The position numbers were made by a program, and so were the translations under genes. Source: Candidatus Stercoripulliclostridium sp. (GTDB lineage Bacteria; Bacillota; Clostridia; Christensenellales; DTU072). Taken from it: a stretch of 64,000 nucleotides of DNA. The DNA is taken from the NCBI GenBank assembly GCA_045577735.1, contig JAZNIY010000013.1:26702-90701 (forward strand), in the 5' to 3' direction. How positions within the stretch are numbered: the first letter of the stretch is position 1; each line of letters begins with the position of its first letter. Shown here in pieces: positions 3,133-49,606 of the stretch. The notes under the pieces were generated by a model. It was not told the DNA's origin. It saw only the letters and a program-made list of their open reading frames with translations, and did not search any database.

Positions 3133-3165
3133 TTTTATATTCCTATTTTATTGCGTTAATAGAGT

Positions 3166-3201: not shown

Positions 3202-3212
3202 TATAACAAATA

Positions 3213-5153: not shown

Positions 5154-5396
5154 GTCCCAATTTTAATGAAAATAATTGCTTTATTGTTAACGCGAAGAAA
5201 GAGGGGACAAGAAGAGATTACTCCTTTAAAACGTGCTTTACCGACGAACGCTTAAAAACGAAATCTTTTTCGTAAAATTGTGCTTTCTTGTGGTGCGCAA
5301 GCACGCAAAACACAAGATATTGTTCGCGCGCGTTCGCCCACACGGTAATATTTTAGTAAAAACACGCGTAATATGTAGCGCGTTAGCGCGCGTATG

Positions 5397-5437
5397 TGCT
5401 AAAATAGTTGCACAAAGGGAAAAGTGTTCCCTATTTT
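5397..5437 (+). promoter_or_regulatory. Candidate promoter region for the giant-gene array (weak call)
   Basis: Extended -10 TGcTAAAAT at 5397-5405 with no good -35. An alternative is TTGCAC (5408-5413)-18 nt-TATTTT (5432-5437). No consensus promoter is visible elsewhere in the 395-bp upstream region. Confidence 0.3.
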
Positions 5438-5485
5438 CCTACGCGTGCGTGGGCACAAATAAAATATTATATAACGGAAAGTGTA

Positions 5486-8400
5486 ATGATGCCGGTTAAG
5501 AAGATAAATTTTAACAAGTTAACAAAAATGGTTTTTGCTCTACTGATAGCTTTGTCGGTAGGTCTTTGTCTTGCGTTTACTTCGTTGGGAGCAGATGGGG
5601 TTGCGCTTGCTGCAAACGATAGCACTGGTTCAGGTGCTGTCGACGTTACCCTTAGTAACTTTGCAGAAAAACTAGACACCGGAGCAAGCATTACGCTAAA
5701 GGCAACGGCCCAAGAGAAGACCTTTGCTCCCGATCCGGCAATCGCTACTTCGGAAGCAACGGAAAGAGCAGTAATAACTCTTTCGGGGGATTTGTGGAGA
5801 GCCGTTCAAAGTGGAAGAATTACAGCGACCCTTCTTGCAAGCGGAACCAACGCTTATGAAACTGTATCGGGAACTGCTGGCACGAAGGATGCAGGGTTTA
5901 CCGTAACTGGCGCTATGGTTGGAAGTGGAAAATTCTCTACCCAAAACACCACCTATACGGACAGGATAATTGCACCGGAAACTTTACTTAATGCCGAAAA
6001 CGGCAACGAAATAATAATTGAATATTACGCAACCCATACTGCATTCGACAGCAAGACTACGCTAGGTGAAAACCTTTCAGAGGCAAAAGTTGACTGCGTT
6101 ATGAACTTCACGTTGAAGCTTTCCTTTGAAGAAGTAAAAGTTACTATCAATTCTTCAAACGGTGGTTCTGTTAAGGATTCTAACGATAACGTATTGGATC
6201 TAACGGCAGGCGCAAAAGAAATCTCATTAGGTTTCGGTGACAGCATCAGCTTTACCGCACTACCTAACGATGCTTACTATTTCTTGGGTTGGAAGAACGT
6301 TAATACTACGGAAGCAAACGTGCCCGGCATGACTTTGGATCTTGGAAAAGCCGTAGACGTTCCCAGTGGCGAATCACCCAGTTATAGCGCACAATTCCAA
6401 TACATAACCATGGCAAAGCAAGACGAGTATATCTATACCGGCTCTCCCGTAGGACCCGTTGTTAGATCTACTGCCTATACCGGCGTTTACTATTTGACCC
6501 ATAGTTATACAGGAACCACAATTTCCGGTGAAACCATCAATTTCAAATCCGAAGGATTACAAGAAATCGTTTCTGCTCCCATACGTGCAGGCTCGTTTAA
6601 TTATACTTGCGAGTTCTACTATCGTGTAGGAACGGGCGAAGGCATCACCAAGGGCGAAAGAATTGGTGGTGTTTCCGTTGATTTTGAAGTAAAGAAGAAT
6701 ACGCCCATAGTTGTTCGTGGAGAGGATAATGCAAGCACCATTACTTTGAATTTTGGTGACAACCTAAGCGACCTCGACCTTTCCTACGAAGCAACCAACT
6801 CCGTTGATACGTTAGTTCGTTTGAGTGGTGTGCTGGAAGTATATCTTGGTGAAGAAAAGATATCTCTAGACAAACTTCTACCTTTAAGCAACGAAGGCAC
6901 CGATTATACCTTGAGATTTACTCCTAGTGACAGCAACAACTACAACGTAGTTGATAGCGCACTCAAGATTTTTGTTAAGGATAGCATTGGTGGTGAAGGA
7001 ACGAATATCGAAGAAGGCAATAGGGACTACGTTATTACGAAGAGCATTGCTACTGCAAGTGACGTTGATAACGGTGTACAAAACAATTTCGCAAGCCTAA
7101 CGCTACCCGATGGTGGTGAACTGATTAAGGTAAGTTTGCGTGCGACGATGCTTGATGAAAGTGGCCAATACTTCTTTATTGGTTGGAGAATCGGTCTTTC
7201 TCGTGACGGCTCGTTTACTGCAAACTCCTACGATTATACCTACTTGAATTCCGGTAAGGTTAATCGTGATGCCAACGGCGACGTTGTATCAATAGACGGC
7301 TTGTCCTATGACTATTATCTACCACACCATTCCAAAGTAAGTGCCGAAGAAAAGGCAAAATATACTCACGCGAAATTCCAAGCAGTATTCGTAAAGGATA
7401 CTACTTGTGGTAGTGCGGCGGCAACGCTAACCATTCCTTATAGTGGTTCTAGGACCTATACAACGCCTACCTTTAGCCCCCAAAGAGCATACTACTCCTT
7501 TGGTTACGGTCAATTGACCTATTACCATGCATCTAACCCCGAAACCGGCGTGGAAGATATCCCTTACGCAATAGGCGAGCATCTTTTGAAGTACGACATC
7601 ATTAACCACGCGGTAGATGATACCATAGTTGATACCAGAGTTATTGCCTATAACGTAACTATCGGTACGCTGGTTGCAGAAATTGACGAATACAATTCAA
7701 TCATAAACGGTGGTTACGACAGAACCACTGGTTGGGCAAGACAAATGTATTATAACCTTAGCGTTGAAAATCTTTTGAGTAAGGGTGCCGAGGCATATTA
7801 CTATTCTTCCGACAATGGTGAGAATTGGACTAAAATAGAGGGCGTTATCGAAGAAGCTTCGGGCTGTAAGCTTGCATTCGTTACTCCCGAAGTTGTAAAC
7901 GATACCCAGGTAAGAAGTTATATCTTCATTGCAACTCACGAAACTAACGGTTTGCCAATGACTTTGGGTGAGAATACCTACAAAGTAGTTGCAGGCGTAG
8001 CCTCTCACACCCTTGTAAAAATTGATACGGTAGTTCCTTCTTTGAGCAACGTAGTTGAAACTAGTGGATTAAACGGTGCTTGGACGAAGTTACCGGTAAG
8101 CTTTAGCGCACTTGCATCATTTGGTGGAAGTGGTGCCGTAATCGACGTTTGCTACCAAAACAATTCCAGCAACTTCGTTAAGCTCGATAGCAATATTTCA
8201 CTTTCTGACGGAACCGATGAAATCAAGCATAACGACGTTCAAGTAAACTTTAGTATCAACACCCAATATAGCGGTAACGTCAAGATTAGAATTAGAACGG
8301 GCTCGGGACTTACTTATGAAGTAAATACCTTGTATCCCATTAACATTGATAAAACTGCTCCTAGCTTTGGCACTCCGGAAAAGAACCACGTTGCAAGTAC

Positions 8401-11400
8401 GGCTCAGGGCTGGATAGGTTTAACTACCCGAGTAACGTTTGAAATAATCAACGAAGGTGGGTCTGCACTTCTTAATCCTACCGGTGTAGATGATCTTGGC
8501 AACCCCATCAACGTATCCTCTGTTGGAGATGGCAAATATATGATTGAAATTAGCGATTCTAGAAACTATAGAATTATCGCTAAAGACGAAGCCGGTAACG
8601 TAAGTGAAATTTCCATTCAAGAGAAGATAGACGTTCAAAATCTCACCTATGATTTTGATGAAGAGAGCTATAAGGCCGAAAATTGGGCAAAATTAGGCTC
8701 AAAAGTAAAAATTATCGTTAATATGGGTGCAAGTGGTGCAAGACTACGTTGTTCCGTTGACGGTAGCGACTATCTCCCTGTAACCGAGTTTATAGGAATG
8801 GAAGTGGGTGCTGTTACCAAGAATTTTGCACTTGAGTATGAAATTCCATATTCCCCCACAACGAAAGAATATGCATTCCAAATAGAAACAGGAACGGGCG
8901 CAGTATATGACGTTGCGTTTGGCTCGGTTAAGTTCGATATTGAAGATCCCGTTTATGCGCTTATCACCGACTTAAGCGCATATCAAGGATCCAATTGGAC
9001 GCAAAACGTGATAAACGCACAATTTACCGTTGTTGATAATCTCGGAGTAGAAAATTCCGGCATTAATGCTGACGACGGCGTTACGGTAGACAATGGTGGC
9101 GTAGTTGCCTATTTGGGTGGCAACGTTTATGAACTCGTTATCGACAAATGTACCGAGTTCACTTTAACCATTAAGGATCGTGCAGGCAACACCATATATG
9201 CAATAATCCAAGCAAACGTAGATACCGTTACTCCCACGTTAGAGCTAAAAGCATACGTTGGTGGCGGTAATCCCGAAGACCTTTCAGAAGAACCTACGGA
9301 AGATGAAAATGCAAGTGCTAATTTGTATGATTTTAATAGCTGGATAACCCAAGCAAATAATGAACCTTGGGTAAGACTAGAGTTCACTATAAATCTTACG
9401 GCATCGGGTTCCAAACTTGAGTATTCCAATAATAATGGTACCACTTGGACGGCACTAACCTCCACCTTTATGCCGGAAGAGGGTAAGGTAACCGGTGAAG
9501 AATACGCACGCGCATATATTACCACCGAGCAAAACAGAAAATATATGTTCCGTTTGGCAACGGGTTCCGGTAAGTACGTGCTATACGAACACGAAACGTT
9601 AGAAGATTTGTATATTAAACTTGACTTTACCTCACCCACCATTCGTTCGGAAGCATTCAGAGTGGGTAGCGAAGCTAACTTTGACCTAAAGAACGTTTGG
9701 GTTAACCAAGACGGTCAATATAGAATTATGCTTCAAGACACCCTAACCGGCTCCGGCGTAGATGCTTCCAGCGTGCTACTCAAAGAATACGCACTTGACG
9801 TAATCGATGAAGATATCTTGAATGGTAGTGCCGTTGCCGTTGAGCAAGTCATGTCTAGATCGGGCGACTATTTCGTATTCAATATGACGGAAGCAAAGAA
9901 ATACCTACTTTGCTTTAACGATATTGCAGGTAACGTTTACGTAGGAGAGATTTTCGTTCCTCACATCGACAAGACCGAGGGATTTACCCTCTCGGTTGAA
10001 GCAACCAAGTATAACGAAAGTGGCGTAGGTACCGCCCTTGCCGACAATACTTGGCTAGACGTTAACGATTACGTAATTTTTGAAGGTGAACCTACCTTTA
10101 CTCAAGGAACGGGTTTTGGACCCAGTGGTGGCGAAATGCAATTCTCCATTGACAATGGTCTAACCTTCCAAAGTGCAAAGACCATAAATGGTGAATCTGT
10201 TCAAGTAAGTGTAAATGCCGAAGGCAAATATCAAATTAGGGTATCTGCAGAGCAAGTTTACAACTACAAATTCAGGCTCGTAACCGGCGCAGGCGTAGAA
10301 TACGTTTATGCCGACAGCTTTACCGTTCAAAAGGACAGCGTAGATCCCACGATTAGCAGTACGCTAGCATATCAAGACGGTGGAGAGTACAATGGCGATT
10401 GGACCAACAAGAACTTGCGTTTTACCATTAATATTATGGTTGGCGCATCCGGTGGTGAGCTATATTATGGCAAGGGTAGCAGTAAGGAAAGTGCTACTTG
10501 GACACACCTAATAGACCTACCCAAGAACGTTGCACAAGCAAGAGCATACTATTACGTTTTGGACAGTTCAACACAAGGTAATTACTACTTTAAAGTAGTA
10601 AGTGGACGTCCCGATATCACCGTTGAAGATGCTGGCGAGCACGCGGTTAAACTAGACAACACTCCCATTGAGGTTCAAACGAAGGCAGCTAAGCTGTTGA
10701 CTGCTTCAAGCGTAGCAAGTGGTAGTTGGGTAGAAAGCACAACTAACCTTTATCCTAACGTTACAACGATAGGCGATAGTGATATTGCAAACGTATACGT
10801 TAAGAAAGACGAGGGTGCTGGCTACGGCGAATATGAAGTAGTTAACACCATCGATTATATCTTGAAGATTAATGAAAACACCTCCGGCTTGGTTGGCTAC
10901 GTATTCAAAGTGGTATCGGTAAGTGGAATGGAAGCAGAAACCGAGGAGTTTAGAATTGGCTTCGATAACGTTGCGCCCGAATTCAACTATAACGTTGAAG
11001 GTAGTAAACTTCCCATGGGTAACCTCTACGAAGACTGGTACATTAGTGAGGTTTCCATCTCGGTAGCCCTAACAAAGCAAATAGTATCCTCTTATGGTAT
11101 CTATTACGCATATAGAGAAAACGAAGACGGTGCAGAATATTCCGAATGGGCATCGGTAGAAAATCTCTTCGTGCTTAACGATAACGCAGTTAAGGGTGGA
11201 CTAGATCGTTACTACAAGATTAAGGTTGTATCCGGAAGTGGAATGTTAGTGGAAACGGATGAACTCTACATCCCCATCGACACCTTCAAATACACCGTTA
11301 AGGTAAACCAATACGTAGGCGACAAAGCAAGTAGTGAAGACTATACTTATGCCGACGTATTAGGTGAGGGCGAATACAATAGAGGAAGCAGTTTGATGGT

Positions 11401-14400
11401 TTCCGTAACACCTCACGCAACCTATACCACTAAAGCAATTAAGGAACTGCTCGATAGTGAAGAGAACTCACTCGTTGATGATATTGCTTATGAAGAAAGC
11501 AGTTCTCAAACGTACAGCTTTAACTACATTATAGGCGCAAACAACGTTACGATAGACGTTAACTTCTATAAAGAAGTTATCGTTGAGTATGGTATGGCTC
11601 TTGTAGGCGACGTTGAAGAAGATTATAGCGTACTATTGCGTCAATGCTTGCAATCGGGAGAAGTTCAAGACGTTCCCGTTAAGGCGGAGGAAGAGGGCTT
11701 TGACGCGTTCTTTGGCGACTTCCTAGACATCATTGAAAAATCATACAAGAAAGGCGATGCCGTGTTTGCTAGAGCAAGGGATATTCACGAGCTGGGCGAA
11801 TATGAGATTATCGTAAACAGCTTGGACGAAAACTTCGTTATTATGAATACTAGCGCAGAGTTAGTAATCGTATACTTTGAAAACGAAGGCACCATATTGG
11901 ATCCATACCTTGTTCATAACGAACAAGACTTCTACTACGTTGACGAATATATGCACTACGAACCCAGCTATGAAAGCGTGGATGAAAGGGCATACCTAGG
12001 AGCAAATAGAAGAAAGGCATACTTTAAGCAAACTGGCGACGTTATCCTTGACGCATTGTTTACTCCAAACGGCGACAAGGGAGATGGTTACACCAACGAA
12101 TTTATGGGTACTTATGATGGTAATGGATATGAAATCATATACGATGGTACCTTTGGAGCAAGAGGTGACTTTGGTTTGTTCTTGAACGTAAGCAACGGAG
12201 CATCCATAATCAACCTTGGTGCAAGATATAGCATTCGTTTGGATGGCGTGGAAAATGCAAACGTAGGATTAATCGTTGCAAACGTAACGACGGGTGGCTT
12301 AAAGAACGTTTATGCTATTGGTAATATTTACGTTAATGGTAGCAAGAACGTTAACGTTGGTGGTGTGGTTGGTATTCTCACCGAAGGAAGCTTAATTTCC
12401 TTCTCGTTTGCCGACGTGGACATATCGGTTGCTACTGTTGCAAATGAAAAAGCAAGTGGTAATTTTGGTGGTATGGTAGGTTATGCTAGCAAGGCATACA
12501 CTGCAAACGTATACACCATTTCAAGAATTACACTAAATGACGTTGATACTTATGACGTTCTTGCCTCTTCGGGTACCGATTTTGCTTATGCAGGTGCCGT
12601 ATTAGGTTACATAGAGAACCTTGACGTTGCCGGTTCTTTACCTACCGATGCCAATAAGAGCTACTATCTTGACAACAACGTAAGTTTTGACGGCTCTATA
12701 GAAAGAGGGTTATCTCTTGGTAACCAAGGAACCTTTGGTCAATATAATCTATTAAAACACGAAGGCGCAAACGTTGACTTCTTTGCCGGTTCTGACGGAT
12801 ATACCGGAAGTAGCGTAAAGATTATTGATCTTGACCATAAGACAACAACCGTTAAAGAACTTGTTAACGTAAGAATTGAAAAAGAAAAAGAAAAGGCCGA
12901 TATGGAAGGTAACGGCACGACCGATAACCCCTTCTTAATCGACACTCAAGAAAAATTAAGATACATCGAAATTTTCCCGTGGGCAGTATTCAAGCAAACT
13001 GCAGACATCATGCTCAGCGAGGGCGTAACCTTTGCAACGGCTGTTCCCTTCGTAGGCGTATACGATGGTGATAACTACTCCATTACCGGGGCTATGGTTG
13101 ACAGTGACGTTGCAACGTATGGCGGTATTTTTGGCGTAGTAAGCGGTACTATTTGCAACCTAAAGGTAATAGACGTTAGCTTGAAGTATGGTGGTGAAAA
13201 CGAAGTTTATGCAGGTGGCGTAATTGGCCTACTAGAAGGTGGCACGTTACAAAACGTAATCGTAACAGGTACTTTGGAAGTTGACAGTAATGCAGACGTA
13301 GTTTACGTTGGTGGACTTGTAGGTGCAATGGTTGGAGGCAGAATAGAAAACTCCATTAGCATGATTAACATCGTAGTAAAGGGTGTAAACGTAATAGTGG
13401 GTGGCGTTGTTGCACAAGCACAAGGTGGCGTTACCATACAAAACGTAGTAAACCTTTCCGCAATGAGTGCTCATTACGAAAAGAAAGCTAACGTAGGCTC
13501 CTCTTTGGGTGCCGTAACTAACGAAGAAGCACAACTAATTAACGTATATCATTTGCTACAAAACGCATACGCAAACGATAAGAGTCTTGCAAGTGCAATA
13601 GGATACAATGCAAGCACAAACGTTAGAGAGGTTGTTGCCAAGACCTACCAAGGAATAATGGAAACCAGCATAGCTTTAGGTAACGTTCAAGAAGTTGTTG
13701 GTGCTCTCTATCCCTTTGAAGGTGCCGGCACAAAACAAGATCCATTCCAAATTGATAGTTATGCTAAGTTAGAGCTTGTTGGTAACTATATGTACGCAAA
13801 CTTTGTTCTAACCGACAACGTTATTATTGGTGACTGGAACGATGACGGCAAACTAGACTCCAACGATGGCTACGATTATGACTTCGAAGTTATAGGTAGG
13901 GGCGCAACCTTTACCGGTTCTCTTGACGGCGACGGATACTCCATACTGGGACTAAGCGACAGCTTGTTTGCAGTAAACGCAGGTGCCGTAAGTGACTTAA
14001 CCCTAAACCTTGACTATAAGGTATACGCAAAGGCAAGTGATATTCCCGCTTCCGACAAGGTATTCGATGCCGACAACGGCGTAGAATATACCTCTTCTAA
14101 AGTGGCGAAAGAGGGCGAAGATATAGTATTTGGCGCACTTGCAAGAGTAAATACCGCAACGGGTAGCTTAATACGTGTAACCGTAACCGGAAACATCTAT
14201 ATACGCACCAAGGGTAATACCAAGGTAACGCTAGGTGGATTTGTAGGAATAGATATGGGTGGACAAATAGTTGCTTCCCAAATCACGGCAAACGTTTCCG
14301 TACGAGCAAGCCAAATGTTGGTAGGTGGCGTTGTCGGTGAAATTACGTACAGCGATCGCGTACTAAATCAAATTACCACAAACTACGTATTGATTAACGA

Positions 14401-14557: not shown

Positions 14558-14637
14558 ACCGAAACATAAACGAGTAAGCGAAACACTCAAGAAAAACGAA
14601 TCGACTCAATTATTGCAAAGTCATAGAGAGGTAGAAT

Positions 14638-25410: not shown

Positions 25411-25420
25411 TCTAAAAAGA

Positions 25421-25450
25421 CCTTTGGCTTGCCCTCGGGCGAGCCAAGGG
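25421..25450 (+). other. Strong RNA hairpin without a U-tract directly after giant gene 2
   Basis: CCTTTGGCTTGCC-ctcg-GGCGAGCCAAGGG gives a 13-bp stem including 2 G-U pairs. It is followed by GCAAGAATAATAA rather than a T-run, so it is not a canonical intrinsic terminator. Confidence 0.5.
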
Positions 25451-25492
25451 GCAAGAATAATAATGATAAGCGCGCACGCGCGTAAGGGAAAG

Positions 25493-26257
25493 ATGAAAAT
25501 TAATTGTGGTTCACAACTTTATACCTATCGTTCTGTTATAAAGACGGAAGAGGACCTAAAGGCCGTATTTACCAGACTTAAAGAGTATGGCTGTACCGTT
25601 GCGCAATGGAGTGGCGTTAAGGTTCCAATAGAGGGTAGCGCACTCAAGGCGTTAGGTGAGGAGCAGGGCATAAAGATACCACTTAGCCACACCCCGTGGA
25701 AGAGGATAGTGGAGGAGACGGACAAGGTCGCAAAGTGGCACCTGGAAGCTGGAGCGCACACCGTTGGACTTGGCATGATGGACGTTAAATACCTACGTTC
25801 CTACGACACCCTCCAAGAGTTTTGTAACAAGGCGAACGAGATAGGGGAAAGGCTAAAGCCCTATGGACTAAGGTTTGGATACCATAATCACTCTATGGAA
25901 TTCAAGAAAATGGGGGACAAGTTGGTTATAGAGCACCTAAGAGACAATTGCCCCGACCTAGAGTTCATATTTGATACCTTTTGGTGTAAGTACGCGGGAC
26001 ATGATCCTAGCGAGTGGATATTAAAGTTAGAGGGCAGAGTGAGAGATATCCACCTTAAAGATTGGAAGAAGAGTATACTCAAGCTACCAAGGTTCCAAGA
26101 CGTAGGAAAGGGCGAGTTAGACTTTGAGAGCATACTCAAAAATGCCGAAAGGGCGGGGACGGAAAGTGCGCTAATAGAGCACGATACAACGAGAAACCCC
26201 GACAAAACGACGAAAGAGAGCATGGAATATCTAAAAGAGATATACCTGAACAAATAG
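25493..26257 (+). CDS. Sugar-phosphate isomerase/epimerase (xylose-isomerase-like TIM barrel)
   Basis: Start moved to ATG 25493 (MKINCGSQLYTY...) with AAGGGAAAG upstream. The spaced motifs GYHNHSMEF, FIFDTFW, IHLKDW and ALIEHD are typical of the AP_endonuc_2 / xylose-isomerase-like TIM fold. Confidence 0.7.
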   Translation: MKINCGSQLYTYRSVIKTEEDLKAVFTRLKEYGCTVAQWSGVKVPIEGSALKALGEEQGIKIPLSHTPWKRIVEETDKVAKWHLEAGAHTVGLGMMDVKYLRSYDTLQEFCNKANEIGERLKPYGLRFGYHNHSMEFKKMGDKLVIEHLRDNCPDLEFIFDTFWCKYAGHDPSEWILKLEGRVRDIHLKDWKKSILKLPRFQDVGKGELDFESILKNAERAGTESALIEHDTTRNPDKTTKESMEYLKEIYLNK

Positions 26258-26335
26258 ATCACAAAAAACCAAACAACGAGAAAAATTAAGGAATCCACTT
26301 ATTAGCGGAAACGCCAATATCTAGGAGAATAAATT

Positions 26336-29300
26336 ATGATGAGAGTACAAGTAAAAAGAATAAGTAAACCCACGTTATTTATAGTAATGCTAGTAGCATT
26401 AACGCTTATTTGCGGATTGTTGTTTACTTCTATACAATTAAACAAAGACTTGATTGCAAGCGCTGCAACAAATATGAGCGTGCCTACCGATCCACAAAGC
26501 AATCATGCTACGTCCATGTCATATTATAAAGGAATAGAGACAAATGCTAGTACAAACTTTTTACAAGATACTGTTGATACAACGTTGACAGCTGGCACAA
26601 CTAAAACCATAACTTCTGACTTTTCTACAGCGGATGATACAGCGGCAGGGCACTTTTCAAATAATGGCTCAACTTGGTCAAGGAATATGGCTTATGATAA
26701 TACGGTTGGTTCAACGACAATCAATACTATGCTATTCTTTTATACTTTTAGGTTGGATGAAGATTTATATGAAAACATAATAAATGGTATGGTTAGCATA
26801 AGTGTTAGTGGTAGTTTCCAAGCTGGAACCACCTATGGTTCTGGTTGTGGCGACTGGTTTTCTGGTTTATATGTTGGCGTTGGCTATGCTAGTAGCGATG
26901 AGAACTCAGTATATTTACACGATTTTGTTCAAATTAGTGCGGTAACGAGTGGCTTTGGCGATCAAGTTTCTAATGCAACCTATCCAACATCCGATACGGC
27001 ACCTGCCATTAGTTCTCAAACTCTAAATAATAACTCAAATATAAGCAATTCTTATGGAAAGTATTTAAGAATAGGCTTGTTTGGTAGAGTATGGAACTGG
27101 GAAGATAGGAATATGACGGTTGCCATTAATAGTTTGAGTGTTACTATAACGGAACCAGAGGCATCCATGACGGTACCAGGCGATAATAATAGTGCCGTTG
27201 AGCCCTGGTATGCTAGTGATATGGCTGGTGGAAACACGGCAAATCCCGCAAGTGGAGTATTTGGTTATCATCAACAACCGAGCAATTTGATTCAAACAAT
27301 CGATACGCTGGATTATTCGGCCAGTAACATAGGTGCGGATTTCTATCGTTATAGTGACAACCAAACGGCGCAGGACAAATTTACAAACGTAGATACAACA
27401 GCAATAGATAATATTACCGGTTCGAATGTAGCTGGAAGATTCTACAACTCCGATGGTTGGTCTTTTGCTGGTGGAAACCAACTTTATCAAGTTGGTTTTA
27501 TGTACACATATAAACTAACAAACGACGTATATAATGCAATCATAGCAGGGAATGTTTCTATATCGTTGGGAGCAACGGCAAAATGGGGTGTTCTTTCGGG
27601 AGATGGTGACGTTGACTCTTGGCTATACGTTGGTATAGGATATTCTCCAAACGATAATTCTGCTGTTTCATATGAAGGATTTAGGCAAATAACGAGAGCG
27701 CAAGGAACGAAGTATGATCAATCTTCAGGTGGATCTGCTTCAACACAGAGCACTGCTAATAGTATTAGTAATGTAACTTTAACTGCAACAAACCCAAATG
27801 ATTACAATAAATACTTGCGTATTTGTATGTGGTTTGAAGCTTGGCCAGGTTCTGGTGGTGGCACTGCACAAATTACAGATGTAAGAATGAACCTTACAAT
27901 GTCAGAAAAAATACCAGTAGATACAACGGTACCATCTTATACAAACAATATGACAAAACCATCAGGAATTACCGTTCCTGGAACGTTTTATAGTAGTGCA
28001 GAATCTCGTAATTTCCACAAACAAGATTCAATGTACACCATATCTAATAGCTCAACCAGTCCCAAGTATTCATTAGTGGCAAGTGGGACGAGTTCTCAGT
28101 ATTTTCAAACAACCAATTATAATATAGTTCAGAACAATTGGGGAACAGATGGTATTTCATCGGGGCTTATTTTTGCAGGTGTTAGTTCGCTTAATATGGA
28201 AAATTCTACTAGTACTAGCAATATATATAAGGCTCGTTTAGAAGTTGGTGAGTATGCTTTGTATGGTATGTTCTATTCCTTAAGAGTGTCGGAAAACGTA
28301 TATAATGCACTACTAGCTGGACAAATTGCTATTGATTTTGAGCCAACTAGCTCGTATAGTGGCGCAAGTGCAACGGCAAGAACGTGGGGCTATATTGGAC
28401 TGGGTTACGCAGCAAGTGAAGATGCAGTTAAAACGGGAAATGGTTTTATTGAAACAAAAGGCTATTTGTCTGGTGCAAGAGGACATTTGAAAGGGACTTC
28501 CGATTATAGTACTAATGGCTCAGCAGCCAATAGGCTATCAGATTTTGTTTTTACAAAAAACGGAGTAGTTACTCAAAATTACAACGGAAATGCAAGCAAT
28601 GGAAATGATAAATACCTTCGTTTTGGTCTTTGGGGATATTCTACGGCTGGTAGCACTAGTGGCTCTCAACACGATTTTACTTTGTCGGAAGTTTATTTTA
28701 ACATAACGATTAAAGCTGTAAACAAGGATGAAAGTGGTCCTATATTTAATATAGAGTCAGGGGATATTGTCTCCACCAACAATGCGGTTACGATTTCCGA
28801 CAATCCGGGCGTTGACTATTACTTATTAAATGGAAATAGAATAGAAGTTGCAAAAATATCTAACACTTCGTTTTCAACATCTACAACGATTACTTTGCCA
28901 AAGCAAGGAAATTATACTCTTTCAGCAGTAGATCTTTGGGGATATTCTAGTATAACCATTAGTTTTACCTATTTCTATTCCACCGTTTACGCTCAAGCAA
29001 ATACGGATGGCACGCAAGGTGACTATAGCGGTGGAGGCGTAGTGTTTGGTAAAGACTACACCAACCTAAGCAGTTACAAATCGCAACAGATTAGTCATAG
29101 TGGTAACTATACTATGCAATACAATCTTTGGGCACACCCCAACGACGGCTATTATTTTGCTGGCTTTACTATAAATGGCTACTCTAATATTAATTTGAAT
29201 TTGATCACCCAAAGCATTAGTACGGCAGGTACGTACTCTGGTACCAATGGTAGTTACTCAACTATTAATGGTGATACTAGGGAATATAAGTTCACTTGGA

Positions 29301-32300
29301 ATGCCTATACCAACGTCATTATTCCTGCCGATGGTAAATTCTATATAACGGCTCACTTTAAGAGCATTCCCACCACTAATAATAGTGCTACCTATGATGG
29401 TATGGCAAAAAACGTTACAATAGGTGACGTTTCCAACGCACCCGGTGTTGGAACTATGAGTAAACTTGCTGTTTCTTATACCGATTCAGCATCTAATACA
29501 ACGACGTCATCACCTATTAATGCGGGAACCTATGTTGCGACATCAACCATTACGTGGAATGGCAACGTTGTTGGTGTAAAGACGGAAAATCTTACCATTG
29601 CTCAAAGGGAAACCACGGCTACTTATACTTTGACAGGTACTGCCCGTAATTATAACGGAAGTAATGATTTCTCCGGTTACGTTTCCTATGCTCTTTCCAA
29701 TCTTGTTTATGGTGATAACGTAGGGCTAGACGTTGTCGCTACAACGGCTGATGCCAACGTTGGTGCAAACAAAGCGTTAAGCATTAGTGCAACGCTTAAT
29801 GGGACCAGTAGTGCAAATTATACTCTTACCAACCCCACGGATAACACTAAGACCTTTACTATCAACACGGCTCCCGTAGAAGTAGTATTCGAGGTGGCGA
29901 ATAAGCCCTACGACGGCAACGCTACGGCATCCGTTACGGTTGGTAGCATTACGGGTTTGATTGGTACAGAAAGCATTCTTTACAATGACCTTAGTGCAAC
30001 CTATGCCGACAAGTATGCAGGGGACAACAAGAAGGTAACCCTAACTAACCCCGTAGCAACGGCTGGAGAGGGTACTAGTCTTGCAAACTACGACATTACT
30101 ACTAATGCCGATAGTTTATATGCAACGATTAGTAAAATAGAGTTAACTATAGATTATCTCCTTACAACCTCTAAGGTATATGACGGCAACGTTACTGCAA
30201 GCGTATCTGACGTTCAAGCAAGCGGTTATATAGGTGACGATAATACTAGACTATCAATTAGCGTTACTGCAACCTATGACGATAGCAATGCTTCTATAAA
30301 CAGAATAATTAGTATTGTCTTTGCAGTATCTGGTGCCGAAAGTATTAACTATTGGACCGAAGACCCCGAAGACGTAAGTGGTATAATCGAAAAACGTTAT
30401 CTTACCATAACGGCTGATGACAAAACTAAGGTATATGGTGAAGCAACTCCCGCATCGTCCTATAGCGTTAGCGCAACCAACGGTGACAATGACGGCACCT
30501 TCGTAACGGCAGACGATGAAAGTGCTTCCAATATAACTATCACCATACCGAGCGTTACTAACGCCGGCAACTATACCATTTCTGCAACGGTAGAAAACAA
30601 CAATGAAAACTACTACTTGTCTGCTGTGGATGGTAGCTACACCATTACAAAGCGCCCTGTTACCGTAACACTAAAGGAACAAGGTGGCGTATACGGTACT
30701 CCCGACCTCGGTGTTGACCAAGGAGCTTACGAAGTTTCTGCAAGCGGTGGTTATGCCTATCTTGGCGACGATTTGGGTATTAGTATCTCTAAAGCAGGGG
30801 ATATGGAAGTAGGCGCACACGCTCTAAGCGCAACCTCTTCCAACACCAACCACGAAGTAAACTTCGTAATCGAAAACAACTTTGTTATCACCAAACGCGA
30901 CCTTACTATCACCTTAGGTGCACAAGGCTCGGTATATGGTGAAGCAATAACCCTTTCAAACACAGTATTCACCACGACGGGACTTGTTAGTGGCGACAGC
31001 GTAGAAGTCATAATTTCCAAGGCAGACGGCACGCAAAAGGGCGAATATGCTCTTAGTGGCGTATTAAACACCGAAAGCGTAAGTTATGCTCACGTTGTTA
31101 AGAACTACAATTACACCATCGTTCCCGGTATCTATACCATTTCCAGAAGGGCAATAACCATTATTCTTGCTCCTCAAGGTTCTGTTTACGGCATAACTCC
31201 CGTAGTAAACCAAGGCGTTGACTACTTCAGCCTAGATACCACCGATGGAAAATTCGACCTTGCTAGCGGTGACGCCAAAGAGGATCTTAACGTTACTATT
31301 ACCAAGGCAGACGGCATAAACGCAGGAGAATATGAACTAACCTTTACTTGGAATAACGACAATTACGAAATAAGTGGTGCTAGTGGCATCTATGCTATTA
31401 CCAAGGCAACCCTAGACGTAACCTACGTTAGTGAAACTATCACCTATGGTGGCACTCCCGGTTACGCAGTAACCTACGCCGGATTCAAGTATACCGATAA
31501 CGAAGACGCTGTTACTACAAAGGCAACGCTAGATACTGCTAACCTTGCATACACCGGAAGCAATATTACTGCAAACGGAGAAGGATATCAAATTACTCCT
31601 AAGGGAGCAGAAGCTCTCAACTACGACTTTAACTATATTGCCGGCACGCTCACTGTTTTGAAGAAGAGCTTGTCCGTTGCTTACATCGAGGAAATCACCT
31701 ATGGTCAAAGCCCTGTAACCAGCATAACCGCAAGTGAATTTACCGTTACCGGACTAATTGGTGAAGAGGGCGCTGGCGTACTAACCTTAACTGCAAATTT
31801 GCCCACTAGCGCAGGCACGCACACCATTACAAGCGATAACCTCACCTTCCAAGCAACCAACTATGAAGTAACCGAAGTAAGTGGTTTACTAACGATAAAC
31901 AAGGCTCAACTAGAAGTTATAATAGGGGCACCTAGCACCGTTGTTCACTATGGTGACAGCATTACCTTGAACGTAACCTACGGCACCACCGGTAAGAACT
32001 TTGTAAATGGCGAAAACGCCGACACGGCTCTCACCCAAAAGGTTGTTGTAGATTTTGCTTCTATCACCAACGAAAAGGGATACGTAAGCGCAAATGAAAG
32101 TGGCTATGACCTTGCTACACTCATTAGCCAAGAGGCAACGGCAGACAATTATGAAATAATCCATACTGCTCAAATCCTTTACGTCTACAAGAAAGAATTG
32201 ACTTTGACCTATCAAGGTGAAAGCAAAGTATACGATGCATTAATCCCCACTCCTTCCAAGGATAAAGTAGTGGTAAGTGGTCTTGTTGACGGAGAAAGCC

Positions 32301-35300
32301 TAGAATATCTTGGCGAAAGCGAAGGATTCGACTACAACTTGGCTGTTAATGCTCCCAAGGCGCAAGTAGGGGAATATCTAGTATACGCGACCTACGTTTA
32401 CGGCGGCGGTAGAGATGCTCTTAACAACTATGACATCAAGTTTGTTCGTGACTACTACGACATCACGCACGCCACCCTTACTGCCACCTACGTTTCCGAG
32501 TCCATCGTATTCGGTGCTACTCCCACAGGCGCTGTTGTATACTCCGGCTTCAAGGGCTCCGATAACGAAGACGTTGTCATTACCAAGGCAACCGTTTCAT
32601 TTGAGAGCATAGATAACGTTACCATTCTCGGTGAAAACAGTTACGTAAACGTTAAAGAGGGGGGATACGCTCTTGCTCCCGAGGGCGCAAGCGCAGTAAA
32701 CTATGTCTTCAATTACGTTGAGGGTACTCTAACCGTTACTAAGAGAGAGGCCTCTCTCGTACTTGTAGACCAAACTTCAGTTTACGGCATAGCCCCCGTT
32801 GTTGGACAAGGTACGGAATACTATGAATTAACCGGACTACTTGAGGGCGACAGCCTAACCTCTCTAACCATTACCAAGGAAGAGGGCATAACGGTAGGAA
32901 GCTACGTACTTGACGCTGTCGTTGTGGCTCCCAACTATGAAGTTGCCGTTACCAAGGCAACCTATACCATAACCCAAGCAACCTTGAACGTTACTATCAG
33001 CTTTAATAGGGCATCCGTCCTTGATATCGACGTTGCATCTCTAACCACCGGCGACTTCACCATCGAATATGTCGGCTGGCAATATACGGATGACGAATCC
33101 TTGTTGGATACCCCCGTTTCCGTGGACCTAGATGCTATTATCTCTACTGCAACCGAAGCTGGCGAATATACCATTTTGTATATCGTAGGTAACGATGATC
33201 AATATATCTTCAACTACGTAAGCGTTGGCACAATCGTTGTTGTTGCTTCCGAAAAAGACGTTGATATTAGCGGTCTATCCTTCACCAGTAAATCTCTTCC
33301 CTATAACGGACAAGAGCAATACCTCGAAGTTGTTTGGAACGATCAACCCGAAGAAGTTGACGTTGAAATTTCCTACACCTATAGTAAACCTTTCCACAAG
33401 GACGTTGACGTATATAGTGTAATTGCAAGCTTTAGAGTTAAGACCGAGGGCTACAAGGACAATATCCCCTCCATGGAAGCATCTCTTACCATTACGGCTC
33501 TTGACGTATCACTCACCCTTGCTCCTCAAGGTTCAGTATACGGCGAAGCAGTAGAAGTAAAGCAAGGTGACGAATACTACACCGTAAGTGGTACCCTTAT
33601 TGAAGGTGACGATCTTGGCGTAGTTATCACCAAGAGCGACGTTATGAATGCAAATCATGGCGAATATGACCTTGATGCAACCATTTCCAATACCAACTAT
33701 AACCTTGTTTCCGTAACCACGAACGTTTATACCATTTCTAAGGTAAACGTAACCGTAAAACTAAGAAATCAAGTTGGCGGATATGGTAAGACGGCTCAAA
33801 TAGCACAAGGGGAATACGATATCGTTGCGGGCGCACTCGTTGACGAAGGCGATATGGTTATCACTTTGAGCGTTGAAACTGCTACCTTGTACGAAGTAGG
33901 CGAAAGCTATGCTATTACTGCAGAAATAGTACCCAACGAATGGTACGTATTTGACGTTATCGATGCAGAATACACCGTTGTTGCAATGGCAATCCAAATA
34001 ACCTTGAACAACGTAATTGCAACCTATGGCGATGACGTAGATGCTACCACTACCTATACCCTCACAAGTGGTACTCTAGCAGACGAAGGCGATGACCTCG
34101 GCCTAGTCTTCAGCATCACTCAAGCCGACAAATACGTTGTTGGTGGCGACTATAGCATTTCCGCTACCGCTTCTAACGACAACTACGTGGTTGAAGTAAT
34201 AGGTGCAAAATACGTTGTAGAAGCCAAGTATATCGAAATAAAAGTTGCCGACCAAAACTCCACTTATGGTGAAGAGTACGTTATCAAGAATGACTTTGCA
34301 CTCGTTGAAGGCTTCAGCTTGGAATATGACGACGAGAAAGAAGATCTGGGCGTAATCGTAACCGTAAACAGCTCTTCTTTGAATGCCGGTACCCACGTTC
34401 TTAGCGCAACAACCTCAACCACAAACTACAACGTTAAGGTAATTAACGGTGCCTACGTTATTGCTAAGGCAACAACCGTATTCTATACGGAAAAGCTACA
34501 AAAAGAATATACCTATACCGGTAACGCAATTAACTTTAAGACCGATACCTCGTACGTATATACCAACAGACCCAATAATCAATCAGGCATTAAGCTTCCC
34601 ACCGTTAGCGTAATCAACGCAGGTCACTATACCGTAACCTTCTCCATTAACGAGAGCACCAACTACGCTTCTGCTAGCGTTGACGTAAATATCGTAGTTC
34701 TTAAGGCAAATCCCGTTGTTAATATGTCCGTTCTTCTAAACAAGACCTACGTTTATAACGGTGTAGAGCAATATATTACTGCATCCAAGGAAGATTTGCT
34801 AGTCAAAGCAGATTTTGATGAAGTAACCCTATCTTGGTCGGGTGAAGTATTCAAAGACGTTCCCGAAACGGGTAACAAACTCGTAGAGCTAACCCTTTCC
34901 GAAACCACGAACTACTTCCCGGCAACCTTTACTCAAACTGTTCCTATCAACAAGGCTAGATATGACTTCACCGGACTAGATTATGCTTTCGCTGGTCTAT
35001 CTAAAGAGTACGACGGCAAAGAATGCTCTGTTCAAGTAGTAAATCTACCTGCAGGTATCACCGTTGCGTATTCATATAAAGATACCATCCAAGAAGCACC
35101 ATTCCTCTTCAAGAATGCAGGTGACTATATCGTTAAAGCAATATATTCCTATGACGAAGTTAACTACGAACGTCCCACCGAATTGATAGAAACAGCATAC
35201 GTTCAAATTGAGCGTATAGATATCACCGTTGAGGTTGTTGATCAACACGGTTACTACGGCGATGCTCCCGAATTCGATCCCAATGGTATTAATGTAATAG

Positions 35301-36613
35301 CAGGAACCTTCGTTGAGGGCGATGAAATTGACCTCAGCATACAACTTGAACCCAAAGACAGCTATCCAATTGGTGTTTATAAGCTTGTCGCTAACACTAT
35401 GGCAAGTGGTAACTACAACGTAACCATTGCAAGTGGTAGCTACACCATCAATCCTCGTCCCATAACCGTTACGATTAATAACGAACAAGCTCAATACGGC
35501 GATGAAGAAAAGCCCTATAGCTTCAAAATAACGGAAGGCACGCTCATTGGTGAAGACAAACTCAAATCCACCCTCGTTCGTGAAACGGGCAAGACCCCCG
35601 GCGAATATGCTATTTCCGGTAGCGTTGTTAACCCCAACTATATCGTTAAAGTAATTCCCGGCGTATACAAGATTGTTCCTCGCCTAATAACCGTAGAAGT
35701 ATTTAACCAAGAGGGTACTTCTGCAAAACAACTCAACAAGAGAGCATACAAGACCTTCGGTAAGATATTGAAGGGCGATAACTTGAACATCCAAGTTGTT
35801 GGTGAAATTGGAAGCACTCCCGGCGAATATCCCTTGAGCGCAACCTATACCGCAAATCCCAACTACGAAGTTGTTATCAAGGGAGGTGTCTTCATTATGA
35901 GAAAGGTTGCAGAAATCAGCGTAGATAACCCCATCGTATACAAACTCTACGACGGCGTTCCTTACGTATTTGACGTATTCGTATCAAGTGGAGCAGAACC
36001 TGTATTCAGTATTGACGGCATCTTCGTTGAAAACTCCTTCACCGAAGTTGGCGTATACAACCTCTCCATTAATGCCGACGTCAAGGGCGAGTACGCTTCT
36101 CCCGATCCTTATCGCATCACCTTCGAAATTCGTCCCACTGTGCTCGAAACCGAAAATGATGGCGTTGTGGTTAAAGTTACCAAGGTCGACGGCTTCGGCG
36201 CAGAAGAAAGACTAGAAATAGAGAAAGATCCTTCCGTTGTTCTTTCCGGCGAAGACTTCTCTTCCAAGATTGATACGGCTCTTACCATTTACGTTGTTCA
36301 AGGAGAAAACAGAGTACCTCTCCAAGAATATATGCAAGGTAGAGAAGCCCACATTAAGATTAAGCTAAATGACCAACTAACCGAGATAGGTGCAGAAACT
36401 TGGTTCGTAGATAGTGACAGCAACGTCCTATACGAAGCACCCACTCCCGATGAAGAAGGATTTGTAGAAGTAACTCTTGCCGACAGCAATCACATCCTCT
36501 TCGTAACTCAAAGAAGCGAAGCAACTCCCATATTGGTTGTGTCCGGTGGTATGCTTATCATCTTCCTGGCAATGGGAATGTTCTTCCTCTTCCGTAAGAA
36601 GTTCATTAACTAA
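26336..36613 (+). CDS. Giant surface protein 3 (3425 aa): signal anchor, three tandem copies of an uncharacterised ~250-aa head module, Ig-like domains, ~25 or more MBG(YGX)-like repeats, C-terminal TM plus basic tail
   Basis: AGGAGA RBS 8 nt upstream of ATGATG. N-terminal TM LFIVMLVALTLICGLLF. The head triplication is described in the findings. The repeat motif recurs throughout: (K/S)VYG(E/I/T)..P, GL(V/I).GD, G.Y.L, NY....G.YTI(T/S)K(R/A). The C-terminus is ATPILVVSGGMLIIFLAMGMFFLFRKKFIN. Confidence 0.85.
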   Translation: MMRVQVKRISKPTLFIVMLVALTLICGLLFTSIQLNKDLIASAATNMSVPTDPQSNHATSMSYYKGIETNASTNFLQDTVDTTLTAGTTKTITSDFSTADDTAAGHFSNNGSTWSRNMAYDNTVGSTTINTMLFFYTFRLDEDLYENIINGMVSISVSGSFQAGTTYGSGCGDWFSGLYVGVGYASSDENSVYLHDFVQISAVTSGFGDQVSNATYPTSDTAPAISSQTLNNNSNISNSYGKYLRIGLFGRVWNWEDRNMTVAINSLSVTITEPEASMTVPGDNNSAVEPWYASDMAGGNTANPASGVFGYHQQPSNLIQTIDTLDYSASNIGADFYRYSDNQTAQDKFTNVDTTAIDNITGSNVAGRFYNSDGWSFAGGNQLYQVGFMYTYKLTNDVYNAIIAGNVSISLGATAKWGVLSGDGDVDSWLYVGIGYSPNDNSAVSYEGFRQITRAQGTKYDQSSGGSASTQSTANSISNVTLTATNPNDYNKYLRICMWFEAWPGSGGGTAQITDVRMNLTMSEKIPVDTTVPSYTNNMTKPSGITVPGTFYSSAESRNFHKQDSMYTISNSSTSPKYSLVASGTSSQYFQTTNYNIVQNNWGTDGISSGLIFAGVSSLNMENSTSTSNIYKARLEVGEYALYGMFYSLRVSENVYNALLAGQIAIDFEPTSSYSGASATARTWGYIGLGYAASEDAVKTGNGFIETKGYLSGARGHLKGTSDYSTNGSAANRLSDFVFTKNGVVTQNYNGNASNGNDKYLRFGLWGYSTAGSTSGSQHDFTLSEVYFNITIKAVNKDESGPIFNIESGDIVSTNNAVTISDNPGVDYYLLNGNRIEVAKISNTSFSTSTTITLPKQGNYTLSAVDLWGYSSITISFTYFYSTVYAQANTDGTQGDYSGGGVVFGKDYTNLSSYKSQQISHSGNYTMQYNLWAHPNDGYYFAGFTINGYSNINLNLITQSISTAGTYSGTNGSYSTINGDTREYKFTWNAYTNVIIPADGKFYITAHFKSIPTTNNSATYDGMAKNVTIGDVSNAPGVGTMSKLAVSYTDSASNTTTSSPINAGTYVATSTITWNGNVVGVKTENLTIAQRETTATYTLTGTARNYNGSNDFSGYVSYALSNLVYGDNVGLDVVATTADANVGANKALSISATLNGTSSANYTLTNPTDNTKTFTINTAPVEVVFEVANKPYDGNATASVTVGSITGLIGTESILYNDLSATYADKYAGDNKKVTLTNPVATAGEGTSLANYDITTNADSLYATISKIELTIDYLLTTSKVYDGNVTASVSDVQASGYIGDDNTRLSISVTATYDDSNASINRIISIVFAVSGAESINYWTEDPEDVSGIIEKRYLTITADDKTKVYGEATPASSYSVSATNGDNDGTFVTADDESASNITITIPSVTNAGNYTISATVENNNENYYLSAVDGSYTITKRPVTVTLKEQGGVYGTPDLGVDQGAYEVSASGGYAYLGDDLGISISKAGDMEVGAHALSATSSNTNHEVNFVIENNFVITKRDLTITLGAQGSVYGEAITLSNTVFTTTGLVSGDSVEVIISKADGTQKGEYALSGVLNTESVSYAHVVKNYNYTIVPGIYTISRRAITIILAPQGSVYGITPVVNQGVDYFSLDTTDGKFDLASGDAKEDLNVTITKADGINAGEYELTFTWNNDNYEISGASGIYAITKATLDVTYVSETITYGGTPGYAVTYAGFKYTDNEDAVTTKATLDTANLAYTGSNITANGEGYQITPKGAEALNYDFNYIAGTLTVLKKSLSVAYIEEITYGQSPVTSITASEFTVTGLIGEEGAGVLTLTANLPTSAGTHTITSDNLTFQATNYEVTEVSGLLTINKAQLEVIIGAPSTVVHYGDSITLNVTYGTTGKNFVNGENADTALTQKVVVDFASITNEKGYVSANESGYDLATLISQEATADNYEIIHTAQILYVYKKELTLTYQGESKVYDALIPTPSKDKVVVSGLVDGESLEYLGESEGFDYNLAVNAPKAQVGEYLVYATYVYGGGRDALNNYDIKFVRDYYDITHATLTATYVSESIVFGATPTGAVVYSGFKGSDNEDVVITKATVSFESIDNVTILGENSYVNVKEGGYALAPEGASAVNYVFNYVEGTLTVTKREASLVLVDQTSVYGIAPVVGQGTEYYELTGLLEGDSLTSLTITKEEGITVGSYVLDAVVVAPNYEVAVTKATYTITQATLNVTISFNRASVLDIDVASLTTGDFTIEYVGWQYTDDESLLDTPVSVDLDAIISTATEAGEYTILYIVGNDDQYIFNYVSVGTIVVVASEKDVDISGLSFTSKSLPYNGQEQYLEVVWNDQPEEVDVEISYTYSKPFHKDVDVYSVIASFRVKTEGYKDNIPSMEASLTITALDVSLTLAPQGSVYGEAVEVKQGDEYYTVSGTLIEGDDLGVVITKSDVMNANHGEYDLDATISNTNYNLVSVTTNVYTISKVNVTVKLRNQVGGYGKTAQIAQGEYDIVAGALVDEGDMVITLSVETATLYEVGESYAITAEIVPNEWYVFDVIDAEYTVVAMAIQITLNNVIATYGDDVDATTTYTLTSGTLADEGDDLGLVFSITQADKYVVGGDYSISATASNDNYVVEVIGAKYVVEAKYIEIKVADQNSTYGEEYVIKNDFALVEGFSLEYDDEKEDLGVIVTVNSSSLNAGTHVLSATTSTTNYNVKVINGAYVIAKATTVFYTEKLQKEYTYTGNAINFKTDTSYVYTNRPNNQSGIKLPTVSVINAGHYTVTFSINESTNYASASVDVNIVVLKANPVVNMSVLLNKTYVYNGVEQYITASKEDLLVKADFDEVTLSWSGEVFKDVPETGNKLVELTLSETTNYFPATFTQTVPINKARYDFTGLDYAFAGLSKEYDGKECSVQVVNLPAGITVAYSYKDTIQEAPFLFKNAGDYIVKAIYSYDEVNYERPTELIETAYVQIERIDITVEVVDQHGYYGDAPEFDPNGINVIAGTFVEGDEIDLSIQLEPKDSYPIGVYKLVANTMASGNYNVTIASGSYTINPRPITVTINNEQAQYGDEEKPYSFKITEGTLIGEDKLKSTLVRETGKTPGEYAISGSVVNPNYIVKVIPGVYKIVPRLITVEVFNQEGTSAKQLNKRAYKTFGKILKGDNLNIQVVGEIGSTPGEYPLSATYTANPNYEVVIKGGVFIMRKVAEISVDNPIVYKLYDGVPYVFDVFVSSGAEPVFSIDGIFVENSFTEVGVYNLSINADVKGEYASPDPYRITFEIRPTVLETENDGVVVKVTKVDGFGAEERLEIEKDPSVVLSGEDFSSKIDTALTIYVVQGENRVPLQEYMQGREAHIKIKLNDQLTEIGAETWFVDSDSNVLYEAPTPDEEGFVEVTLADSNHILFVTQRSEATPILVVSGGMLIIFLAMGMFFLFRKKFIN

Positions 36614-36635: not shown

Positions 36636-36669
36636 GCGTGCGTGCCTATGGCGCGCACGCACTTGTTTT
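36636..36669 (+). terminator. Intrinsic terminator closing the giant-gene array
   Basis: GCGTGCGTGC-ctatg-GCGCGCACGC (10-bp GC-rich stem with one G-U pair) followed by ACTTGTTTT, 23 nt after the stop of giant gene 3. Confidence 0.8.
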
Positions 36670-49596: not shown

Positions 49597-49606
49597 GGGG
49601 TAAAAT

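Follow-up and report, generated by a model that had tools for sequence, protein, structure and literature searches.

Strain-level mosaic hypervariability in the head of a giant predicted surface protein of Candidatus Stercoripulliclostridium

The window analyzed here is a stretch of 64,000 nt from Candidatus Stercoripulliclostridium sp. (assembly GCA_045577735.1, contig JAZNIY010000013.1, positions 26,702-90,701 of the forward strand). Three giant open reading frames (ORFs) on its + strand, which we call G1, G2 and G3, make up 30.1 kb of it, and a small gene, TIM, lies between G2 and G3. The ORF list places the three at 5408/5486-14557, 14638-25410 and 26336-36613, co-oriented as a first-pass annotation of this DNA had described them. 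The most distinctive feature of the array is the N-terminal head of G3, which is a hypervariable mosaic at the level of strains. The predicted features of the three products support their description as very long, exported, modular surface proteins of fibrillar type in a spore-forming Firmicute. Our preferred reading, which we consider probable though well short of certain, is that G1-G3 of this uncultured gut Clostridium are fibrillar adhesins and that G3 carries a recombining, hypervariable and probably glycan-binding tip.

G3 (26336-36613, + strand; 3425 aa) opens with a signal peptide (aa 1-~43), which is followed directly by the head (26462-28711, + strand; aa 43-792). The head had been described as non-repetitive, but it consists of three tandem modules of ~250 aa each, A (26462-27160), B (27161-27910) and C (27911-28711), which a self-profile detects with E values of 1e-99 to 1e-118. 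The hypervariable mosaic region extends over 26443-29944 (+ strand; G3 aa ~37-1203) and contains four blocks that can be exchanged independently of one another; the breakpoints, at ~26415-26443, 27166, 27933, 28845 and 29909-29944, fall at module boundaries. Five strains with identical NrdD are 98-99% identical in nucleotide sequence to the window from 28845 or ~29910 onward, and this identity collapses upstream; at the protein level the stalks of these same strains are 96-100% identical and G3 residues ~400-1200 only 24-50%. Eight further loci match the window at 98.7% identity through G2, TIM and the G3 signal peptide, as far as 26415-26443, and in some of these strains identity returns at 27166, where module B starts, is lost at 27933 and is back at 28845 or 29944. 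In contrast, G1 and the part of G2 from aa 286 onward are uniform between strains.

When clustered at 85% identity, 33 full modules fall into 21 types, with a median identity between types of 25%. These types are found in different combinations: T21-T3-T7 in the window, T2-T3-T7 in P0002, T2-T3-T1 in L017, T2-T9-T1 in L016 and T5-T6-T1 in L021 and L022. Module number varies too, with two in P0005 and P0007, three in the window and about five implied by an allele of 3846 aa, at the upper end of the 3002-3846 aa spanned by G3 orthologs. Several metagenome contigs end inside the G3 head, and we attribute these breaks to the differences between strains there.

Next to the head, exchange across the species boundary is seen as well. 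The stretch 26033-26345 (+ strand), which covers the 3' end of TIM and the TIM-G3 spacer and abuts the variable head, bears the signature of recent inter-species recombination. When compared with L006, a Candidatus Stercoripulliclostridium metagenome-assembled genome from our scan of species-representative genomes, the tract has 7 mismatches over ~313 nt, whereas the 5' part of TIM has 25-33 mismatches per 90 nt. The window's TIM-G3 spacer is closer to that of L006 than to those of the conspecific strains L016 and L021, and the tract is not specially conserved in either of the more distant species L024 (GCA_965353945.1) and L025. That the spacer is so nearly identical to that of L006 can thus be ascribed to the recombination tract, and a regulatory element is not needed to explain it.

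We considered whether the variation could be produced by a diversity-generating retroelement (DGR) and rejected this, as the window has no reverse transcriptase or repeat pair and the variation takes the form of whole-module replacement at ~25% identity. A contact-dependent inhibition or polymorphic toxin system was likewise set aside: the variable part is N-terminal, the C-termini are conserved predicted transmembrane anchors, and the genes downstream of the array are nrdG and nrdD. As to gene conversion of the pilE/pilS type, which draws on silent donor copies, no silent head cassettes were found elsewhere in the 64-kb window. As a separate observation, the L024 locus has between its G2-like gene and G3 (9062-10000) a gene for a 114-aa protein of the 23S_rRNA_IVP family, accompanied by many GC hairpins resembling repetitive extragenic palindromes. 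This family includes Avd-like four-helix-bundle proteins of DGRs; no reverse transcriptase was seen in the 29 kb around the L024 gene.

An exhaustive HMMER scan of 1.84 billion representative proteins with the head-module profile returned only 8 clusters, all of them G3-sized proteins (3002-3420 aa) or fragments, and the head domain is therefore confined to this lineage. A word-indexed protein search gave 0 matches for the G3 head and 1 fragment only for the G2 head, a failure that is probably due to low-complexity candidates swamping the index. The expectation that the heads would match no characterized adhesin or enzyme family was borne out in Pfam, in NCBIfam (which matches nothing in G1, G2 or G3) and in sequence and profile searches of the PDB, which were likewise negative. 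An AlphaFold2 model of the head module, built from a 17-sequence alignment, is a beta-sandwich with one short helix (pLDDT 79, pTM 0.83). Its Foldseek neighbors in the PDB include Bd1399, CBM61, the sugar-binding domain of Fbs1, MAM, phage tailspike modules, CBM4/11/16/22 and a gingipain adhesin domain, and in a viral library they are phage tail-fiber and receptor-binding jelly rolls, among them an F5/8 type C domain protein. In its predicted beta-sandwich fold the module agrees with CBM and galactose-binding-domain-like jelly rolls (CBM61, CBM4/11/16/22, the Fbs1 domain, MAM). It differs from them in that TM-scores are 0.25-0.35 at ~10% identity and there is no relationship at the sequence level; ligand binding by the module is putative. 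In other words, the module resembles the galactose-binding-domain-like jelly-roll fold class and is not a member of any of its families; judged from the model, the G3 tip most likely binds glycan.

The rest of G3 has the predicted layout of a long anchored fiber. The head is followed by an Ig-like segment containing a GYYF.GW element (aa ~795-1000, signature at aa 939), by ~25 MBG/YDG-type units found by self-profile (aa 978-3200), by a conserved membrane-proximal region, and by a predicted C-terminal transmembrane helix with a basic tail (aa ~3395-3425). G2 (14638-25410, + strand; 3590 aa) has a hydrophobic N-terminal segment (aa 27-54), a conserved head (aa ~51-300), a GYYF.GW element (aa 364), at least 8 Ig-like 'GNYxG' units (aa 531-1714, self-profile), and 13 MBG-like units (aa 1726-2744 and 3125-3557) that are interrupted at aa 2745-3125 by a unique region; it ends in a predicted transmembrane helix and a basic tail (aa ~3561-3590). 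Should the hydrophobic segment be a signal anchor that is not cleaved, both ends of G2 would be tethered. An unusually long extension of ~26 aa precedes that segment (aa 1-54 together, 14638-14800) and is kept in the P0001 fragment.

G1 (5486-14557, + strand, with the ORF also open from 5408; 3023 aa from ATG 5486) is different. It has a signal peptide (aa 1-~42), a head (aa ~43-225), GYYF.GW-type elements at aa 264 and 562, ten Ig-like 'DxTxP' units of ~105 aa each (aa 848-1938; nt 8027-11299) and three GLUG-related repeats of ~250 aa each (aa 2179-3004; nt 12020-14497), both sets located by self-profile. No C-terminal anchor was detected in G1; of the three proteins, only G2 and G3 have the helix with basic tail. 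A regular-expression search of the C-terminal ~50 residues found no LPXTG-type motif in any of them.

Much of the architecture proposed in the first-pass annotation holds at this level. By our heuristic for export (a hydrophobic segment with an AXA-type site), all three proteins have the N-terminal Sec signal or signal anchor claimed for them; the A.P..GYYF.GW signature is common to G1, G2 and G3, as stated, and is present in orthologs as well; and the tens of stalk modules are real, with iterative self-profiles counting ten Ig-like and three GLUG-like units (10+3) in G1, ~21 (8+13) in G2 and ~25 in G3. The domain libraries, which were expected to report MBG, Flg_new, Big_3/Big_5 and GLUG in the stalks, gave far less. 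Only G3 exceeds the Pfam gathering cutoff, with MBG_2 (PF18676) at 89.9 bits against 25 over 7 stretches and YDG (PF18657) at 54.7 bits. MBG_2/MBG_3 in G2 stays sub-threshold (22.6 bits against 25), and full-length G1 has nothing above cutoff and no MBG at all. When modules were scanned in isolation at E<=1, Pfam yielded sub-threshold hints only, including Big_3 for one G1 unit (E=0.062, 14 bits, cutoff 21.2), GLUG for a G1 repeat (E 0.05, 14.5 bits, cutoff 20.5) and a PKD-like domain at 0.02. For the Flg_new/InlB B-repeat models (PF09479/TIGR02543), neither Pfam nor NCBIfam gives a match to G1, G2 or G3 at E<=0.01, and Big_5 matches none of them. About 85% of residues are without a Pfam match.

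The class that these proteins resemble most closely in layout is that of the fibrillar adhesins, defined by Monzon et al. (2021; PMC8286594) and exemplified by Cna, SraP and CshA, which in Gram-positives carry the adhesive domain N-terminally and the anchor C-terminally. The likeness lies in the very long polypeptide, the N-terminal export signal, the distal putative binding region, the beta-rich tandem stalk and, for G2 and G3, the putative C-terminal attachment element; like members of the class, the proteins are fast-evolving and poorly covered by domain models (PMC8286594). They differ from the class in having no LPXTG/sortase signal, in heads that belong to no known adhesive-domain family, in the tandem arrangement of three such genes, and in the lack of a recognizable anchor on G1. 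A transmembrane anchor in place of a sortase motif has been predicted for Embp, a giant staphylococcal adhesin (PMC7587433). G2 and G3 share with Ebh/Embp the giant size, the N-terminal export signal and the predicted C-terminal transmembrane anchor, but the stalks of the staphylococcal proteins are alpha-helical FIVAR/GA bundles with a YSIRK signal and those described here are beta-rich and MBG/Ig-like; YSIRK, FIVAR, GA and DUF1542 were not detected in G1-G3 by Pfam. Among the giant MBG/YDG surface proteins of Firmicutes (PF18676, PF18657), the G3 stalk scores above threshold, that of G2 is sub-threshold and no such units are detected in G1; that family is defined by the stalk module alone and says nothing on heads.

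Our reading can be stated as a model. G2 and G3 would be exported by their N-terminal signals and held in the membrane by the C-terminal helix and basic tail. With the export signal N-terminal and the anchor C-terminal, the heads would then stand farthest from the cell, carried by a stalk of ~20-25 small beta-rich modules. Unlike G2 and G3, G1 would be secreted with no anchor, and it is probably co-transcribed with G2. The tip of G3 would consist of three lineage-specific, CBM-like jelly-roll modules in many deeply diverged allelic types. Homologous recombination, with its exchange points at module boundaries, would reshuffle these types between strains and, as the adjacent tract indicates, between species too. 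The deep allelic diversity and recombination of the tip point to diversifying or frequency-dependent selection, and we suggest that the variation serves either to vary ligand specificity, the ligand probably being a glycan, or to escape a tip-targeting agent such as phage or host antibody.

Several points weigh against this model. Some of the allele combinations could be chimeric metagenome assemblies from samples where strains co-occur; each module type recurs in several independent assemblies. TM-scores do not exceed 0.35, so glycan binding rests on fold class alone. The structure model of the G2 head is of low confidence (pLDDT 43), and although the order of its secondary-structure elements resembles that of a G3 module, we do not use this as evidence. 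Finally, the model does not account for the mode of attachment, if any, of G1, which has no recognizable anchor.

Mosaic variable binding regions are known from serine-rich repeat adhesins and from phage tail-fiber tips. The G3 head shares with these a constant stalk, a distal, diverged and recombining region, and a jelly-roll or lectin-like fold; it differs in that three tandem copies of an orphan domain are swapped independently, in a copy number that ranges from 2 to ~5, and there is no homology. A bolder form of the model, possible in our view but less probable than not, treats the G3 tip as a combinatorial cassette system in which two to ~five tandem copies of an orphan lectin-like domain, each taken from a stock of deeply diverged types and exchanged at module boundaries by homologous recombination within and between species, would set a strain's 'adhesotype' or phage-receptor type, with G1 as a secreted partner of the anchored fibrils. 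If the head behaves as we suggest, it offers a natural experiment, a new putative glycan-binding domain of ~250 aa in at least 21 types on a constant stalk, that would be useful for studying how binding specificity diversifies or how phage are evaded in gut commensals. It is also of practical use as a strain marker, and assemblies are known to break in it. More broadly, the lineage would be spending ~30 kb on three surface fibrils that domain libraries barely recognize, which would show how much of the surface biology of uncultured gut Firmicutes stays unannotated. No long-standing question is opened by this, giant adhesins with variable tips being a familiar theme.

The alternative that fares best explains the variability of the G3 head mainly by a role as phage receptor or antibody target: the diversity would reflect escape, with negative frequency-dependent selection, and not a range of binding specificities, and the proteins might chiefly form a surface layer for protection or spacing. 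A single species maintains deeply diverged alleles and recombination reshuffles them, yet the stalks, G1 and G2 from aa 286 onward are uniform. This is the classic pattern of targets exposed to parasites or immunity, and the variable part is the most distal part. This explanation is compatible with an adhesin, however, and the jelly-roll, CBM-like fold suggests ligand binding; as the principal cause of the variation we think escape somewhat unlikely.

A second alternative is the one proposed at first pass: a paralogous family of three fibrillar proteins, built on one plan and expressed from a single ~31-kb transcript. In its favor, the GYYF.GW element is present in all three proteins and MBG-like stalk units in both G2 and G3. 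No whole-protein paralogy is detectable, however. An all-against-all BLASTP comparison gives a single match, which joins the GYYF.GW elements of G2 and G3 (E=0.001), and the G3 head-module profile finds no match in G1 or G2. When the head profiles are aligned with one another by hhalign, the probability is 0.6-2.7% and the aligned parts are limited to two short motifs, frLsd.vYnaLi.G and KYLRiG; with a non-significant alignment and two short recurring motifs, we do not accept common ancestry of the heads. The idea of one plan survives loosely for G2 and G3, which share an N-terminal head, an MBG-like stalk and a C-terminal helix, and does not extend to G1, which is anchorless and built of different modules. 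The claim of a paralogous family is thus not upheld.

The transcriptional part of this alternative draws on the co-orientation of the genes, a G1-G2 gap that is short and unstructured, a single canonical terminator, and the lack of any sigma-70 consensus promoter before TIM or G3 in our search. The G1 leader (5305-5485, + strand) contains a candidate promoter with an extended -10 element (TG at 5397-5398, TAAAAT at 5400-5405). It also has GC-rich palindromes (5320-5395) and, at 5416-5432, a small hairpin whose expected place in the transcript is close to the 5' end. The leader is ~92% identical to that of L006 over ~180 nt and ~50% further upstream, the -10 reading TGnTAAAAT in the window and TGnTACAAT in L006; Rfam has no family match in the leader. 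The G1-G2 spacer (14558-14637, + strand) is A-rich and, as had been noted, without a hairpin (minimum free energy -4.7 kcal/mol, z +0.82). Only its last ~25 nt, the ribosome-binding site (RBS) region, are conserved with L006, which is in keeping with co-transcription of G1 and G2, a plausible unit.

The next junction is less simple. The gap after G2 was said to hold a hairpin with no U-tract followed by a small TIM-barrel gene, and both are present. The hairpin (25421-25450, + strand) has 13 bp, and the 82-nt gap around it folds at -33 kcal/mol (z -3.9); this gap length follows from placing the TIM start at ATG 25493. That start is the most likely one: it is the product of 254 aa, not that of 277 aa, which occurs exactly on 15 public contigs. 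The hairpin found at this position in L006 is 15 bp long and its stem is unrelated in sequence. In L024 and in L025 the G2-like gene is likewise followed by a hairpin, and the feature thus recurs in all four species examined. It is a candidate partial terminator or a 3'-end or processing stabilizer. TIM itself (25493-26257, + strand; 254 aa) is predicted to be cytoplasmic, of AP_endonuc_2/xylose-isomerase-like type and resembling sugar-phosphate isomerase-epimerases. It always adjoins G3, upstream in the window and L006 and downstream in L024 (19020-19778) and L025 (19538-20305), where it lies 3-10 nt after G3 and directly before nrdG. The two genes have thus swapped order during evolution. 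In L024 and L025, G3 stands behind a structured intergenic spacer of 160-940 nt.

The TIM-G3 spacer (26258-26335, + strand) folds only weakly (-8 kcal/mol, z -1.8); the first description gave it no hairpin. A hairpin is seen directly 5' of the G3 RBS in each lineage, GCG-GAAA-CGC at 26290-26325 of the window, CAACG-GAAA-CGTTG in L021, and stems of 9-10 bp in L024 (9955-9990) and L025 (9955-9985). Covariation in the alignment is weak (2 compensated pairs), and the element is possibly a 5' stabilizer. After G3, the claimed terminator at 36636-36669 (+ strand) is clear, with an 11-bp stem (36636-36660) that includes 9 GC pairs, followed by a T-run; for the 74-nt intergenic stretch around it the folding energy is -28.3 kcal/mol (z -5.0). 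No other convincing terminator on the + strand turned up in pattern scans that covered the array from end to end. GC-rich palindromes of the GCGCGC/ACGCGT type were noticed by eye in otherwise AT-rich spacers at 5320-5395, 25470-25482 and 36636-36660, and could represent a shared operator or chance. Because the post-G2 hairpin is kept in position in four species and the order of TIM and G3 changes, with long structured spacers in L024 and L025, one simple operon for the whole array is doubtful. TIM-G3 may be read through, processed or separately initiated. Taken as a whole, the proposal of three paralogs on one plan and one transcript seems to us unlikely.

A third alternative would make the products giant carbohydrate-active or scaffold proteins, such as cellulosome-like or enzyme-carrying assemblies, whose CBM-like heads target polysaccharide and not cells. 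Many CBMs are found among the structural neighbors of the head, and the sugar-isomerase-like TIM gene always adjoins G3. Remote relatives of the G1 C-terminal repeats (P0011-P0013) bear Pfam GLUG (PF07581), and among such relatives one has a peptidase M26 N-terminal domain and another a dockerin. But Pfam and NCBIfam find no catalytic, cohesin or dockerin domain in the ~10,000 residues of the array, and the membrane-anchored fibril architecture fits adhesins; we regard this alternative as improbable.

The genes themselves are real and selectively maintained. An exact-product look-up of NrdD, the 281-aa upstream gene product and the TIM protein recovered the locus from more than 10 independent metagenome assemblies; the same look-up gave no match for G2, for TIM from a TTG start (277 aa) or for the esterase. 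G1 is 99.0% identical in nucleotide sequence to that of strain L009, and G2 is 3590 aa long in all 4 strain assemblies with a recorded length, at 98.7% nucleotide identity. A search for synteny in related genomes, as had been proposed, found the array in L006 in the order G1-G2-TIM-G3, with a G1 of 3064 aa (66% identical), a G2 of 3599 aa (59%), TIM (81%) and the start of G3 only. Values of dN/dS are 0.14-0.30 between strains and 0.12-0.19 between species (G1 0.12-0.14, G2 0.19-0.30, G3 stalk 0.17-0.19), which indicates purifying selection on all three genes. Tandem repeats are absent from the 31-kb array and none of its nucleotide repeats exceeds 69 nt, which removes repeat collapse as a concern. 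That several contigs break inside the G3 head might suggest an assembly artefact or decaying pseudogenes, a notion we find scarcely credible given that many independent assemblies and four species have intact ORFs of matching length, that dN/dS is well below 1, that long repeats are lacking and that strain heterogeneity explains the breaks.

Around the array lie the usual chromosomal features of a spore-former (SleB, YpeB, NrdD/NrdG, a TPP riboswitch and others), and SleB and YpeB lend support to the earlier assignment to a spore-forming Firmicute. Among the genes of the 64-kb window we found no sortase, secretion-system, glycosyltransferase, recombinase or reverse-transcriptase gene, in line with the earlier remark that no sortase, secretion apparatus or glycosyltransferase lies alongside. 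The TPP riboswitch (54822-54918, - strand; RF00059, 60.5 bits) is an ordinary one, 5' of a thiamine transporter gene (53683-54753). The region 47048-52543 contains genes for an ABC ATPase, for a 543-aa protein without a family and for a protein of 978 aa that has a single Big_2 domain; together they are probably a further surface or export module, unrelated to the array. Strains L001-L004 have a two-gene insert of ~1.2 kb (13470-14684 in L001) between a Pyr_redox gene and a diacylglycerol-kinase gene; it is absent from the window (40981-41172) and encodes a 176-aa protein without a family and a 67-aa HTH_3/XRE regulator. At 1822-4058 (- strand), a stand-alone condensation-domain protein of 436 aa adjoins the 281-aa protein, which has no Pfam or NCBIfam match, and both show exact conservation in several strains.

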